From the sequence record OR083247.1: a DNA stretch of 64,000 nt; one strand, 5' to 3'. Shown one piece after another: positions 681 through 59,533 of this stretch. Numbering within the stretch: the first letter of the stretch is position 1; the number at the start of each line of letters is the position of its first letter. The notes under the pieces are model-generated. The model was not told where the DNA came from, ran no database searches, and was given only the letters and a program-made list of their open reading frames with translations. The DNA is from Escherichia phage Bf23. The position numbers were made by a program, and so were the translations under genes.

Positions 681-757
681 TGGCGCGACCGATGGGATTT
701 GAACCCACATTCTCTCCCGTGACAGGGGAGTACCATTACCAAGCCAGCCCCGGTCGC
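681..757 (-). tRNA. tRNA-Asp(GTC)
   Basis: Acceptor GCGACCG/CGGTCGC, anticodon stem CTCCC/GGGAG, loop CTGTCAC, T-arm GTGGG/TTCAAAT/CCCAT, discriminator G, CCA encoded (TGG at 681-683 on plus). Confidence 0.8.
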
Positions 758-766
758 ATAATTTAT

Positions 767-952
767 TTACTCAGCTTTGAGTTTTTCAATAGCTGCATTA
801 AGTTCTTTAAGAAACTCTTTTCGTACATTAAGACGATTGAGACTTACTAGTATATCATGTTTAAGTTCTTCGATGTATTTCTTCTCAACTTCAATATTGT
901 TGATAGTGCTATCACGATGAACCTCTAGCTGTGCAATTACGTTCTTAGACAT
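767..952 (-). CDS. hypothetical small coiled-coil protein (61 aa)
   Basis: ORF track; charged heptad-like sequence. Confidence 0.35.
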   Translation of the reverse strand: MSKNVIAQLEVHRDSTINNIEVEKKYIEELKHDILVSLNRLNVRKEFLKELNAAIEKLKAE

Positions 953-1054
953 ACTTATTTCCTCAGTTATTAATGAAAATGGTATCTGTGGCTGAATTCG
1001 ATGTCAGCAATGATAGCTGGTTGGCTACCGGTTTACTTAACTCTACACAGAATT

Positions 1055-1132
1055 TGGCGGTTCCTGCTGGATTCGAACCAGCAACCCTCAACTTAACAAG
1101 ATGCCGCTCTAACCAATTAGAGCTAAGGAACC
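1055..1132 (-). tRNA. tRNA-Asn(GTT)
   Basis: Acceptor GGTTCCT/AGGAACC, D-arm GCTC..GAGC, loop TTGTTAA, T-arm GCTGG/TTCGAAT/CCAGC, discriminator G, CCA encoded; anticodon stem has mismatches (3 of 5 pairs). Confidence 0.6.
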
Positions 1133-1627
1133 ATATAAGTCAGAACTAGAGTTAATACGTTCTAGATATTTACTAAGATCTCTAGAATTTATACTAAACC
1201 ACTCATGTTCTTTTAAATCTTTGAAATACTGGTGAATTAGTTTTTCACCTTTTCGTTTGTCAAACCAAAAAGACCAATGCTCTAACTTATAATCCCTATA
1301 AGGGGAATAAGTCTGATATTGAGCTAATCTCTCTTTTGGATTTTGACTCATGCCTATTTTATACTGATTTTTCCATGCAGGATTACTAATACAGTATACA
1401 AAACCTTCAGAAATAGGAAGTTTATTTTCCTGCTTAAACTTTATAAAGGAAAGTGCAGCAAGTTTTCTCGAATACATAGTATTTGTATTCTTTTTGGTAT
1501 TACCATTGGTTCCTGAAAGATTTATATATTCTTCCATAAATCTTTGGATTAGTTCTGCAGTTATATAGAAGGGCTCATTAGTAACAACGCCTTTCTTTAC
1601 CAAACTATCAAAAACTTTTGTATGCAC
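1109..1627 (-). CDS. GIY-YIG / T5orf172-like domain protein (172 aa)
   Basis: Motif GFVYCISNP..YKIGMSQNP..RLAQYQT matches the GIY-YIG-like T5orf172 pattern; 3' end overlaps tRNA-Asn by about 24 nt. Confidence 0.55.
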   Translation of the reverse strand: MHTKVFDSLVKKGVVTNEPFYITAELIQRFMEEYINLSGTNGNTKKNTNTMYSRKLAALSFIKFKQENKLPISEGFVYCISNPAWKNQYKIGMSQNPKERLAQYQTYSPYRDYKLEHWSFWFDKRKGEKLIHQYFKDLKEHEWFSINSRDLSKYLERINSSSDLYGSLALIG

Positions 1628-1648
1628 TACGCCTTTCCTTTAGTAATT

Positions 1649-1724
1649 TGGACGACCGCATGAGATTTGAACTCACATAAAAAGGATTTGCAATCCTTCG
1701 CCTAAGCCATTCAGCCAACGGTCG
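1649..1724 (-). tRNA. tRNA-Cys(GCA)
   Basis: Anticodon stem AAGGA/TCCTT, loop TTGCAAA, T-arm GTGAG/TTCAAAT/CTCAT, acceptor 7 bp with one G-U, discriminator U73 (Cys identity element), CCA encoded. Confidence 0.8.
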
Positions 1725-1902
1725 ATTTATCTTGTTTTTCGAGATCTTCAAATTCTAAATCATTGAAGTTCCCTAGAGTACGGGAGTAGAACCCGTCTCC
1801 TGCGTCATAGCCTGATTTGCCACAATCACACATTTTAAATTCACGAAGATGTGTAAAAACATGTTCAGAACCACAACACTTAAATCTAACTAATCGTTTC
1901 AT
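1711..1902 (-). CDS. small Cys-rich protein, possible zinc ribbon (63 aa)
   Basis: CC..H..C.C spacing in the translated ORF; stop overlaps the tRNA-Cys 5' end. Confidence 0.4.
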   Translation of the reverse strand: MKRLVRFKCCGSEHVFTHLREFKMCDCGKSGYDAGDGFYSRTLGNFNDLEFEDLEKQDKSTVG

Positions 1903-1931
1903 TAGCTTCTCCAGTTCAATTTATGTAATTA

Positions 1932-2240
1932 TTATATAGAACTTTTGGAAACTAAGCAACTACATTTTTTTAAGAATTTGATGCCTTTCTTTTTCTTCTT
2001 ATATTTCCACGTTAATGGATTTTGTCGATTATGAACGCTTGAGATCTTTGTCTCGTCAAAGTTCTTCAATATCATGTAATCACAGGATAATTGTTTTAGT
2101 GGAATGTGATCCCCGTCAAAAGCGTATACATAAGGCTGTTGACTAGCACGATAATGATAGACTTTGTTAATTCTACGTTTCAGCGACTTATCCGCACAGT
2201 AAATAAAGAAGTTTTCAGGATGCACTAGCATCTCCTTCAA
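1932..2240 (-). CDS. hypothetical protein (102 aa)
   Basis: ORF track; lysine-rich C-terminus. Confidence 0.4.
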   Translation of the reverse strand: MKEMLVHPENFFIYCADKSLKRRINKVYHYRASQQPYVYAFDGDHIPLKQLSCDYMILKNFDETKISSVHNRQNPLTWKYKKKKKGIKFLKKCSCLVSKSSI

Positions 2241-2242
2241 TT

Positions 2243-2317
2243 TGGTGCACCCTGTTCGAATTGAACGAACCTCTCAAGCTCTTCAGGCAAGCGCTAATCC
2301 ATCTCAGCTAAAGGTGC
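2243..2317 (-). tRNA. tRNA-Phe(GAA)
   Basis: Acceptor GCACCTT/AGGGTGC (one G-U), D-stem GCTG/TAGC, loop CTGAAGA, T-arm GTTCG/TTCAATT/CGAAC, discriminator A73, CCA encoded; anticodon stem carries two U-U mismatches. Confidence 0.55.
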
Positions 2318-2323
2318 AAATTT

Positions 2324-2394
2324 TGGCAGGGGTAAAGGTATTCGAAACCTTTTCATGGGTTTTGTAGGCCCATTTGCAACCTATGCGTACCCCA
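2324..2394 (-). tRNA. tRNA-like gene, anticodon unassigned (short, possibly degenerate)
   Basis: CCA encoded, T-arm AAGGT/TTCGAAT/ACCTT, 6-bp acceptor GGGGTA/TACCCC; middle region only 35 nt and no canonical 7-nt anticodon loop resolved. Confidence 0.35.
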
Positions 2395-2403
2395 ATTGTT
2401 AAT

Positions 2404-2480
2404 TGGCGTCCTGTGCGGGGATCGAACCCGCAAACCCTACCTTGAAAGGGTAGTGACTTTACCCGTTTGTCTAACAGGAC
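2404..2480 (-). tRNA. tRNA-Glu(TTC)
   Basis: Perfect acceptor GTCCTGT/ACAGGAC, anticodon stem CTACC/GGTAG, loop CTTTCAA, T-arm GCGGG/TTCGATC/CCCGC, discriminator G, CCA encoded. Confidence 0.8.
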
Positions 2481-2486
2481 TTAAAT

Positions 2487-2574
2487 TGGTAGGGGAGGAT
2501 GGAGTCGAACCACCCGAGTCGCAATGACAACTAATTTACAGTCAGCTCTGCTACCACTTACAGAATACTCCCCC
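2487..2574 (-). tRNA. tRNA-Tyr(GTA), type II with long variable arm
   Basis: Anticodon loop CTGTAAA with stem GCTGA/TTAGT (two G-U), variable arm about 15 nt, T-arm GGTGG/TTCGACT/CCATC, discriminator A73, CCA encoded; 88 nt. Confidence 0.65.
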
Positions 2575-57900: not shown

Positions 57901-58615
57901 CTTGTAGTGATCTAGCAAGGGACTGAACAGGAGTACCTGTTATGGTGCCAACAATAGTACCAAACTGTTCTAACCTGTTTAGCTGATCACCTACTTTTAG
58001 GCTCTCAAAAGCAGTCTGTAGGACGAATACGTTAGAAGCAATAGCAGCGTATAATATTGGTAAACCACCACCAACTTTAGCCATTGCAGCAAAGTCACGA
58101 GTAGCTCCGCGTGCGGAACCGGAAGTATTACCTAAAGCTCTAGAAGCCCTACCAGCAGCACCAGCAGTGTCATTAAAACCTCTAGTTGTACCGCCTAAAA
58201 CTCTATTGGTGTCATACAATCTATCTTGAACTTTCTCTGTTGCAGCTGCAACATCATTACCCATTGCTTTAACAGATCTAGAAACTCCATCAAATCCAAT
58301 TTCTAGTTTATCTGTTACTTCAATAAGTTGGATAGCCAGGTAATCTAGCTTATCACCAATACCATCAATGGATTTAGTGATGCCAGCCATACCCCTACTA
58401 GCTTGCATTTTAGTAAGACTTTTTGCTGCCCTGTCTGCTGCCCTCTCAATGGAGTATAGAGTTTTGGGCATTTTACCTAACTGTTCATTTGTCAGTTCGG
58501 AAGCAGCAGCAGCATTTTCTAATGCATCAGATACGTTTTCAATAGACTTTGCAGTACGGGTTGCCCCCTTCTGTTTAACGTCTATCAGTAATTCTCGTAT
58601 TAGCTTATCAGTCAT
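54935..58615 (-). CDS. tail tape measure protein (pb2-like, 1226 aa)
   Basis: Very long coiled-coil-rich protein with hydrophobic Ala/Gly-rich segment. Confidence 0.85.
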   Translation of the reverse strand: MTDKLIRELLIDVKQKGATRTAKSIENVSDALENAAAASELTNEQLGKMPKTLYSIERAADRAAKSLTKMQASRGMAGITKSIDGIGDKLDYLAIQLIEVTDKLEIGFDGVSRSVKAMGNDVAAATEKVQDRLYDTNRVLGGTTRGFNDTAGAAGRASRALGNTSGSARGATRDFAAMAKVGGGLPILYAAIASNVFVLQTAFESLKVGDQLNRLEQFGTIVGTITGTPVQSLARSLQEAAGYAISFEEAMRQASTASAYGFDREQLEQFGLIARRAAAVLGVDMTDALNRVIKGISKQEIELMDELGITIRLNDAYADYVKQLNAANTGITYNINSLTTFQKQQAYAKAAIAESTKQFGYLDEVLRATPWEQFAANADAALRTIQQAAAKYLGPVVDAINTVFYISQASVSAEAARAQEKTNKQIDPTNVGAVALSLAASEEGYNKALDMYRESLDKRNKLKSEFDKRMEQADFYTKLAIRQVGEGIPVGLAAAGASEANKQFVAETAAMGLQVARLDKEVTDSTENLNAWKSAFQTAGAAATKANPEFQKQINLQKDIYDPDAVYDFNSAALKGLTEQQKAYNQTKKTSSDLANDFQNIASSTDTAAKTSATFEEVIRNVESLSAGTGKSADEYVKNLNLGFNTLSEMKTASQALSEYVKLTGNETKNQLAVQQKIADVYNQTKDKEKAQEAGRRLELQQLEEQEAALRRVLQTNQGNKAVEKEIEKIQLEKLKLTNQGMEAQKKVKDYTDKILGVDREIALLNDRTMTSTQYRLAQLRLELQLEQEKAKLYSKQADGQAKVEQSRRAQAQISRELWEAEKQATASHVSALMDALEVSQTQRNVTGQSQILTERLSILQQQLELSKGNTEEELKYRNEIYKTAAALEQLRKQRESQMQQQVGSSVGATYTPTTGLSGEDKDFADMQNRMASYDQAISKLSELNSEATAVAQSMGNLTNSMIQFSQGSLDTTSMIASGMQTVASMIQYSTSQQVSAIDQAIAAEQKRDGKSEASKAKLKKLEAEKLKIQQDAAKKQIIIQTAVAVMQAATAVPYPFSIPLMVAAGLAGALALAQASSASGMSSIADSGADTTQYLTLGERQKNVDVSMQASSGELSYLRGDKGIGNANSFVPRAEGGMMYPGVSYQMGEHGTEVITPMVPMKATPNDQLSEGSRSSSGRPIILNISTMDAASFRDFASNNSTAFRDAVELALNENGTTLKSLGNS

Positions 58616-58618
58616 AAT

Positions 58619-58663
58619 TTATTTTTCCCAATAAAAAAGGCTCTGGGCAAATCACCCAGAGCC
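58619..58663 (-). repeat. conserved 22-nt element TTATTTTTCCCAATAAAAAAGG plus GC hairpin immediately upstream of the tape measure start (copy 1)
   Basis: Identical 22-mer recurs at 63624-63645. Confidence 0.6.
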
Positions 58664-58698
58664 AAGCCTCATCGTGGAACGCCCATTGGAGGAAACTT

Positions 58699-59067
58699 TT
58701 ACCGTGCGCGAGATCTAGCATGTGGCTTAACGTTAGGAATCCTTCCGTTTTGCGGTTTATGCTTCTCAGCACGTTTACGTGCAGCATCTACAGCTTTAGC
58801 ATCAAATATATTGATAATGTGTAGAACAAATTCTTTTTCTATGGGATCAGTAATCCCATAAATATCAAATAAAACACCTAAAGCAGCCTTGTCTTTACCT
58901 ATAAAAATAGGGAAGTCACCAGGTATGAAACAGTCAACTAGACTATTATAAATATTCATACTAATAGCTACAATAGGTGGAAAGTCTTCAAGTTCAACAG
59001 GCATAGCTTTAGGATCAGGCTCTATACCCATTGATTCACAAAGTATTAAATATTGTTGTTTAGTCAT
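58699..59067 (-). CDS. tail assembly chaperone, downstream part (122 aa from first ATG; frame open further upstream)
   Basis: Frame is open from 59154 and overlaps the upstream chaperone ORF by about 25 nt in the +1 frame; no SD upstream of its ATG. Confidence 0.45.
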   Translation of the reverse strand: MTKQQYLILCESMGIEPDPKAMPVELEDFPPIVAISMNIYNSLVDCFIPGDFPIFIGKDKAALGVLFDIYGITDPIEKEFVLHIINIFDAKAVDAARKRAEKHKPQNGRIPNVKPHARSRAR

Positions 59068-59128
59068 TTTAGATGCTGAGCTTTTAATACACTTATCTGC
59101 AAAATCAGCAACAGCATCTAGTAATTCT

Positions 59129-59533
59129 TTACGCTTTTGAGCTACGAAAAGTATCTAAGTGGAACACTGTCTGGTTGATCCAAGAATCAAACGCAGCAGA
59201 GTTCTGCATAAGCATTACAGCATTATCACGACTAAATGGAACTTCAGTAGCAGGATCAGCATCTGTTTCAATCAGCATGAGTTTTTCAACGTCACCTACA
59301 GTCAAACCAGTCCAACCTTTAATCGCAGCATCAACGAAAGCTTCAATGAACTTATCATCATCCTGTACCTGAATCAAAGTACCATTAACCCACTCATCAC
59401 GCTTAGCAGAGGTGATAACTCGTTTAGAAGTAGCACGAGACATATAATTAAGCTCTAGCTTAAAGTTTGGCATACCTGGGTATGCAAGAGTGACAGTACG
59501 AGTTTCTAAAGTAATATCTTTTAAGTTAATCAT
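59129..59533 (-). CDS. tail assembly chaperone (134 aa)
   Basis: Position between tail tube/p140 and the tape measure gene. Confidence 0.5.
   Translation of the reverse strand: MINLKDITLETRTVTLAYPGMPNFKLELNYMSRATSKRVITSAKRDEWVNGTLIQVQDDDKFIEAFVDAAIKGWTGLTVGDVEKLMLIETDADPATEVPFSRDNAVMLMQNSAAFDSWINQTVFHLDTFRSSKA

Follow-up and report, generated by a model that had tools for sequence, protein, structure and literature searches.

A conserved UUU_CGN motif and a candidate programmed +1 frameshift between the tail assembly chaperone genes of T5-like phages

Comparative sequence analysis indicates that the two small tail assembly chaperone open reading frames (ORFs) upstream of the tape measure gene of a T5-like phage are very probably expressed in part as a G-T fusion made by frameshifting. 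The fusion (277 aa; complement(join(58699..59145, 59147..59533))) would most likely arise by a +1 slip at UUU_C within the sequence UUU_CGU (Phe129-Arg130 of ORF1; 59144..59149) and not at the CAAAAG run downstream of it. The initial annotation had proposed a programmed +1 frameshift joining these ORFs, and four lines of evidence favor that proposal. First, TTT_CGN occupies the homologous codon pair in every related locus examined that has the same frame relation. Second, a sister clade with a different frame relation carries a canonical −1 site at that Phe codon. Third, the linker between the two ORFs is under coding constraint. Fourth, the annotated start codon of the downstream ORF lacks a ribosome binding signal and is not conserved.

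Organization of the chaperone locus

The window analyzed here is the whole 64,000-nt stretch of Escherichia phage Bf23 DNA (OR083247.1), from a T5-like phage (Tequintavirus). Its morphogenesis genes, and all coordinates given in this article, are on the minus strand. The chaperone region is 97.7% identical to that of T5, and the ORF1 protein is an identical match to an Escherichia phage Bf23 protein. In descending coordinates, the locus comprises the pb6-like tail tube gene (61828 to 60434), a p140-like baseplate tube gene (60429 to 59533; PF23779), ORF1 (59129..59533; 134 aa), ORF2 (122 aa; ATG at 59067 and stop codon at 58701 to 58699), and the tape measure gene (58615 to 54935; 1,226 aa). 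The ATG of ORF1 at 59533 is preceded by a strong Shine-Dalgarno (SD) sequence (GGAGA), and its stop codon is the TAA at 59131 to 59129. T5, SSP1, and other relatives share the order tube, p140-like, ORF1, ORF2, and tape measure.

In profile searches, ORF1 and ORF2 alike matched PHROG families of tail assembly chaperones. The 258 positions of phrog_313 span both, ORF1 aligning at 12 to 141 and ORF2 at 170 to 258 (E = 2e-17 for ORF2), and phrog_3914 matched the +1-frame segment that begins at the proposed shift site (E = 1e-56). Gene position and the PHROG matches agree with the earlier assignment of two chaperone ORFs upstream of the tape measure gene, and ORF1 and ORF2 are likely to correspond to G and T, respectively, in a tail assembly chaperone pair of the lambda G/GT type. 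As a separate observation, a phrog_313 profile that covers both G and T implies that at least one member of the family must be a fused or joined protein.

Frame relation and overlap

ORF2 lies in the +1 frame relative to ORF1 (59533 mod 3 = 1 and 59067 mod 3 = 0, in descending coordinates). The coordinates bear out the initial description of the ORF2 frame as open up to 59154, immediately past a TAG at 59157 to 59155, and both frames are open between 59129 and 59154. The two runs that had been placed in this overlap, CTTTTC (59151 to 59146) and CAAAAG (59139 to 59134), are both there. The overlap itself, given as 25 nt, exists but measures 26 nt with the ORF1 stop codon and 23 nt when only sense codons are counted. 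The −1 frame at the window junction is closed, with only seven open codons, and no canonical −1 tandem slippage site (X_XXY_YYZ) is found there.

A survey of related loci was assembled from GenBank representatives (T5, Sugarlandvirus, Erwinia KEY, and six Vibrio lineages) and six assemblies, found through ORF1 homologues, together with two sets of 80 IMG/VR loci. The resulting 181 loci represent T5-like phages; phages of Vibrio, Klebsiella, and Erwinia; and marine metagenomes. For each locus, ORF1 was aligned, and the codon that corresponds to the window's Phe129 was scored. The overlap proved to be a conserved feature of related phages, with a second frame open across the junction in 181 of 181 loci. 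Because the second frame is always open, and because the frame relation tracks a specific nucleotide motif (see below), the ORF1/ORF2 arrangement is, on this comparison of sequences, far beyond chance. A tblastn search with the hypothetical fusion as the query returned 909 phage records, and all 60 of the matches listed aligned as two pieces in two frames.

Conservation of TTT_CGN at the shift codon

An in-frame TTT_CGN stands at the Phe codon homologous to that of the window (59149 to 59144) in 136 of the 136 loci whose ORF2 is in the +1 frame. The second of these codons, which would occupy the ribosomal A site, is CGT in 116 loci, CGC in 14, and CGA in 6; CGG does not occur, and the Arg codon is never AGR. 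The motif always lies within the stretch where the second frame is already open. The codon before TTT varies (ACT, as in the window, ACC, AAC, AAT, TCC, ACG, GGG, TTG, CAC, or TAC). The 136 loci form 29 clusters at 80% identity, with divergence down to ∼23% identity, and among 29 T5-like haplotypes, TTTCGT is the sole invariant hexamer around the junction. When the loci are grouped at 70% identity (17 clusters), TTT makes up 50% of the Phe codons in these two genes, and CGN makes up 58% of the Arg codons. The corresponding probabilities for the 17 cluster representatives, ∼8e-6 for all TTT and ∼1e-4 for all CGN, are naive values that ignore shared ancestry, though synonymous sites are saturated over such divergence.

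Phe129 lies in a conserved amino acid motif, [LI]-x-[NT]-F. This motif accounts for part of the conservation of the site but not for the use of TTT over TTC or of CGN over AGR. The G that follows UUU_C is invariant, yet neither protein forces it: the −1 clade described below has Thr or Ser at this point, and the residue in the +1 frame may be V, E, or A.

The distance from TTT_CGN to the ORF1 stop codon ranges from 1 to 29 codons in the 136 loci (5 codons in the window), and the ORF1 stop codon is therefore no part of the signal. The range is widest in a marine +1 clade, where ORF1 continues for 12 to 29 nonconserved codons beyond the site while the +1 frame holds conserved sequence. This clade bears on the possibility of a +1 shift farther downstream, made either by tRNA-Lys on AAA_G (59138 to 59134; …FRSSK|RKELL…) or on GCG with UAA in the A site, as in prfB. 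The tRNA-Lys is shift prone, an A-site stop codon classically stimulates +1 shifting, and CAAAAG is kept in Tequintavirus, Epseptimavirus, and Sugarlandvirus, all of which would suit such a shift. However, the position of the stop codon in the marine +1 clade would place it well beyond the conserved site, and the A-run is missing from that clade, from Erwinia KEY, and from all Vibrio lineages. Re-pairing from GCG to CGU would also be poor, and no SD-like element lies upstream. Of the two runs singled out in the initial annotation, CUUUUC (with its UUU_C) is thus the conserved one; CAAAAG has disappeared from relatives as close as phiR2-01, where it is broken (CCA AAG TCG). We consider a shift at these downstream positions highly unlikely and place the slip at UUU_C.

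Two other events at the U-run would produce a fusion in the same frame. A −2 shift, of the kind documented for gpGT of phage Mu (mentioned in PMC3498833), would land in the same frame as a +1 shift and add one Phe (…DTF-F-VAQK…). After such a shift, tRNA-Phe would face CUU, ACU, or a similar codon, with a mismatch at the first position. The variability of the preceding codon means that no −2 re-pairing is conserved, whereas the +1 re-pairing from UUU to UUC is conserved without exception, and we regard a −2 shift as slightly less probable again than a shift on the A-run. Transcriptional slippage on the T4 run, leaving a minority of mRNAs short of one U, would give the same fusion. Known transcriptional slippage sites need runs of ∼7 to 9, far above the 4 U found here (3 in lineages with AAC TTT CG), and slippage would leave the conserved G after the C unexplained. 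Certain genes of bacteria and viruses do rely on homopolymer slippage (PMC5009743), but for this locus it is the least probable of the explanations that we considered.

Elsewhere in the window, in-frame TTT_CGN is mildly depleted (7 observed versus 11.9 expected over all long ORFs; Fisher P = 0.07), and in the long ORFs TTT tends to be followed by AGA and TTC by CGT. The depletion would fit selection against a shifty dicodon but is suggestive only.

Change of frameshift direction in a marine sister clade

The T frame is at −1 rather than +1 in 45 loci from marine metagenomes (within L039 to L089; e.g., L046:1587-1642 and L057:1587-1642). At the homologous Asn-Phe codons, all 45 read GAA or GCA followed by AAT TTT, which constitutes the canonical heptamer A_AAU_UUU. 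Most of these loci also have a stem-loop (core CAAGUAG…CUACUUG) ∼8 nt downstream of the heptamer. For 10 of the 11 cluster representatives of the −1 clade, folding z scores fell in the range from −1.6 to −5.5, while those of the +1 group scatter around 0. RNAalifold gave no consensus structure for the −1 clade, in which loop lengths and registers differ. A count of the named helix found its 7-bp core in about two-thirds of the sequences, with weak covariation.

In a neighbor-joining tree, the −1 clade is monophyletic and is the sister of the marine +1 clade. The direction of recoding therefore changed once, and the covariation of motif with frame represents one event, not many. The contrast between the two clades argues strongly, at the level of sequence comparison, that both shift at the Phe codon. 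Nine +1 loci (within L101 to L180) read A_AAT_TTT_CGN and so hold both motifs together; they possibly represent an intermediate stage in evolution or a site capable of shifting in either direction.

Linker and start codon of ORF2

The competing view is that ORF1 and ORF2 are two independent genes, with ORF2 initiated at the ATG at 59067, either de novo or by reinitiation once ORF1 has terminated, and with no fusion made. Current annotation is in line with it: all 14 annotated GenBank records examined list separate coding sequences or only one, and none has a joined coding sequence. T5-like phages also share an ATG at the position of 59067, and a genome announcement (PMC6256483, citing Zivanovic 2014) describes T5 and Sugarland as lacking a predicted frameshift signal. 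The properties of the start codon and of the sequence ahead of it point the other way.

The ATG (59065..59067) lies 61 nt beyond the ORF1 stop codon. The best anti-SD duplex before it has an energy of −0.1 kcal/mol, in accord with the absence of an SD sequence reported initially, compared with −6.4 kcal/mol for ORF1 and a median of −5.75 kcal/mol for 40 long ORFs of the window. Nor is the codon conserved, as the column that holds the Met of T5 contains M, I, V, L, or F in other lineages. Among 29 lineage representatives, only one has an ATG or GTG with an SD duplex of −4 kcal/mol or stronger upstream of the conserved core, and six have no ATG, GTG, or TTG ahead of the core at all. The ATG at 59067 is probably an internal Met codon of the fusion. 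Around 900 related GenBank genomes annotate two small proteins at this locus, often with arbitrary ORF2 starts; the weak and nonconserved start explains why the ORF2 lengths assigned by gene callers scatter between 104 and 157 aa.

The 61-nt "intergenic" linker (59068..59128) contains no start codon and is coding in the +1 frame (…RKELLDAVADFADKCIKSSASK), as judged from site variation, conservation, and a predicted helix. Among T5-like haplotypes, the variable sites of the linker fall 8/5/18 on the three +1-frame codon positions (chi-square P ∼ 0.011), with a similar bias in ORF1 (4/3/16) and ORF2 (9/7/20). Across lineages, the linker is conserved as an amphipathic segment, is always open, and has only in-frame indels. 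In the AlphaFold (AF2) model of the extended ORF2 (pLDDT of 89.3), residues 2 to 23 of the extension form a confident helix (pLDDT of 86 to 94), which would directly follow the C-terminal helix of G (residues 113 to 130). A scan of the linker for promoter-like sites found none.

A 9-bp stem-loop is predicted within the linker (59070..59120; z = −1.7), formed by UAGAUGCUG (59120 to 59112) pairing with CAGCAUCUA (59078 to 59070). It is intact in 33 of 35 T5-like loci, with one compensatory change from U-A to C-G, and is degraded in phiR2-01 and DU_PP_V. The stem lies ∼24 nt from the shift site, too far for a classical stimulator, and ends 3 nt short of the ORF2 ATG, which it may occlude; it may also be incidental.

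Independent genes would need to start ORF2 from a codon without an SD sequence and just past this stem, would have no use for a linker under coding constraint, and would preserve neither the synonymous choice of TTT_CGN nor its exchange for a −1 heptamer when the frame changed. Independent expression is accordingly unlikely, although it is the least improbable of the alternatives to a G-T fusion made by slippage at UUU_C.

Proposed mechanism

We propose the following. The majority of ribosomes would read ORF1 to its stop codon and release the 134-aa G protein. A minority would slip when tRNA-Phe (anticodon GAA) is in the P site on UUU (59149 to 59147) and the A site holds CGU. The G·U wobble pair of tRNA-Phe on UUU would be exchanged for a G-C pair on UUC (59148 to 59146), one base forward, and decoding would restart in the +1 frame at GUA (59145 to 59143; GUA GCU CAA…) to give …HLDTF|VAQKRKELL…. 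The segment read after the shift (58699..59145; 148 codons and a stop codon) would supply the linker helix and the T domain, as suggested by phrog_3914, phrog_313, and the AF2 model, and the C-terminal helix of G would run on through the linker helix into the T domain. If lambda gpG and gpGT are a guide, G may coat the tape measure protein and the rare GT may recruit the tail tube protein. We infer from the sequence anatomy, rather than read directly from it, that the shift occurs, where exactly and in which direction it takes place, how efficient it is, and what GT does.

The efficiency is expected to be low, since the +1 group shows no conserved stimulator, either SD-like or structural, and our guess is a value like the few percent of lambda. 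A conserved downstream structure was looked for in the +1 group and not found (z around 0), and no conserved SD-like element was found upstream of the site; none is present in the 21 nt upstream. The A-site codon is also common. Of the 838 Arg codons in the genes of the window, 394 are CGT, the most frequent type, and CGU is used at 20.2 per 1,000 codons in E. coli (table in PMC3498833). An explanation based on a "hungry" A-site codon is therefore not obviously applicable, and the invariance of the G does not result from a rare codon.

These features lead to a broader and more tentative suggestion, which we think somewhat less likely to be right than wrong: that UUU_CGN alone, with no rare codon, stop codon, SD sequence, or RNA structure, is intrinsically prone to +1 shifting on both bacterial and eukaryotic ribosomes. 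The T5 family would then have relied on UUU_CGN across a deep divergence (∼23% protein identity), and one marine clade would have swapped in a −1 heptamer with a hairpin at the same Phe codon.

The window also contains a cluster of six tRNA genes of the phage (Asp, Asn, Cys, Phe-GAA, Glu, and Tyr; 681 to 2574, minus strand). The phage's own tRNA-Phe (2243 to 2317) could be the tRNA that slips at UUU_C.

Comparison with known frameshift systems

The tail assembly chaperone frameshift of long-tailed phages, typified by lambda gpG/gpGT, has been reviewed (PMC5009743; Levin 1993; Xu, Hendrix & Duda 2004). The T5-like locus resembles it in several respects: there are two small ORFs directly upstream of the tape measure gene, the downstream ORF runs in a different frame, overlaps the 3′ end of the upstream one, and lacks a start signal, and the proposed slip site lies near the end of G. 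A chaperone-like fold of ORF1 is a candidate further similarity. Unlike in lambda, the proposed shift is +1 rather than −1, there is no X_XXY_YYZ heptamer, and the p140 gene intervenes between the tube gene and G.

The closest counterparts of the site itself are in eukaryotic viruses. UCC_UUU_CGU is the +1 site of PA-X in influenza A virus, proven by peptide sequencing, and tRNA-Phe pairs better with UUC than with UUU (PMC3498833); UUU_CGN is also the inferred +1 motif of amalgaviruses (PMC5052127). The T5-like site has the identical UUU_CGN core, a downstream ORF in the +1 frame, conservation at synonymous sites, and no evident RNA structure as a stimulator, features shared with both systems, and the proposed slip of P-site tRNA-Phe from UUU to UUC is that proposed for PA-X. 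In contrast to PA-X, the host is a bacterium in which CGU is common rather than a rare A-site codon, the E-site codon is ACU, variable among lineages, instead of the stimulatory UCC, and the product is a phage assembly chaperone. The authors of the PA-X study raised the same puzzle of the A-site CGN codon (PMC3498833).

Among bacterial +1 shifts, those of the prfB type differ from the proposed site, in which the A-site codon is CGU, the ORF1 stop codon is 5 codons away (up to 29 in relatives), and the 21 nt upstream have no SD-like sequence. Dicodons of the form UUU/C-CGG/U were reportedly tested in E. coli by Schwartz and Curran in 1997. Sites of the form UUU_Ynn are prone to +1 frameshifting in E. 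coli (PMC5009743), and a shift at UUU_UGG has been proposed for Yersinia YopN-TyeA, where the site was not confirmed by mutagenesis (PMC3789692). The T5-like site shares with these a bacterial setting and a slip of P-site tRNA-Phe onto the following pyrimidine. It differs from the UUU_Ynn sites, which are error-level or engineered, in that an entire phage family conserves it.

Structural genes of phages provide further +1 shifts, namely, Tsh and Cps of Listeria phage PSA and gp17.1* of SPP1 (PMC3498833 and PMC9022992). As in these cases, the shift proposed here would add a C-terminal extension from a site close to the end of a tail or capsid gene. Unlike in these cases, no stop codon is involved, and the product is a chaperone that is not part of the virion. 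The PSA and SPP1 shifts are said to occur on CCC beside a stop codon and to extend virion proteins.

Prior reports and implications

In the literature searched, whose coverage was incomplete so that an earlier description is possible, we found no report of a frameshift at this locus in T5, Tequintavirus, or Demerecviridae. The frameshifted G/GT pair, +1 shifts in phages, and UUU_CGN in eukaryotic viruses were already known; the new element would be a UUU_CGN +1 shift for the T5 family. When 1.84 billion protein representatives were searched with the extended ORF2, the matches were small ORF2-like proteins only, with many alignments entering the 29-residue extension, and no single-ORF G-T fusion. 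The credible homologues of ORF2 were 67 to 178 aa long. Two longer matches (P0006, 1,455 aa, and P0132, 554 aa) were set aside: both are repetitive proteins, they matched ORF2 in several stretches, and the matches look spurious and driven by the repeats. The four possible T5 fusion sequences were absent from a collection of 15 billion proteins.

T5 is a classical model phage, and its tail assembly is under active structural study. If the frameshift is real, T5 would again conform to the rule, general among long-tailed phages, of making G and GT at a fixed ratio, and both ORFs could be joined at TTT_C as an annotation rule for all Demerecviridae. The UUU_CGN signal of PA-X and amalgaviruses would then work in bacteria with a CGU codon that is not rare, which bears on why a CGN codon in the A site promotes +1 slippage, and the direction of frameshifting would have changed from +1 to −1 at one homologous codon within one protein family. 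Should UUU_CGN be intrinsically shifty, T5 or BF23 in E. coli would provide a tractable bacterial model for the A-site CGN effect of PA-X.

Region between T and the tape measure gene

The interval between the stop codon of T and the ATG of the tape measure gene (58615) holds a terminator-like hairpin followed by a T-run (58639..58663), where the T5 record (NC_005859) also annotates a terminator. The hairpin and T-run are strong, and their position is an odd one for a terminator, within the late operon. In the T5 record, an endonuclease gene, T5.141 (L004:1530-2032), lies between the T ORF and the tape measure gene; it is missing from the corresponding interval of the window (58699 to 58615) and from most relatives. 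An ORF of 59 aa (58608 to 58787, minus strand) overlaps the end of ORF2 and the terminator, and a shorter version is annotated as hypothetical in some records (e.g., L002:2352-2453). This ORF is probably not a gene.
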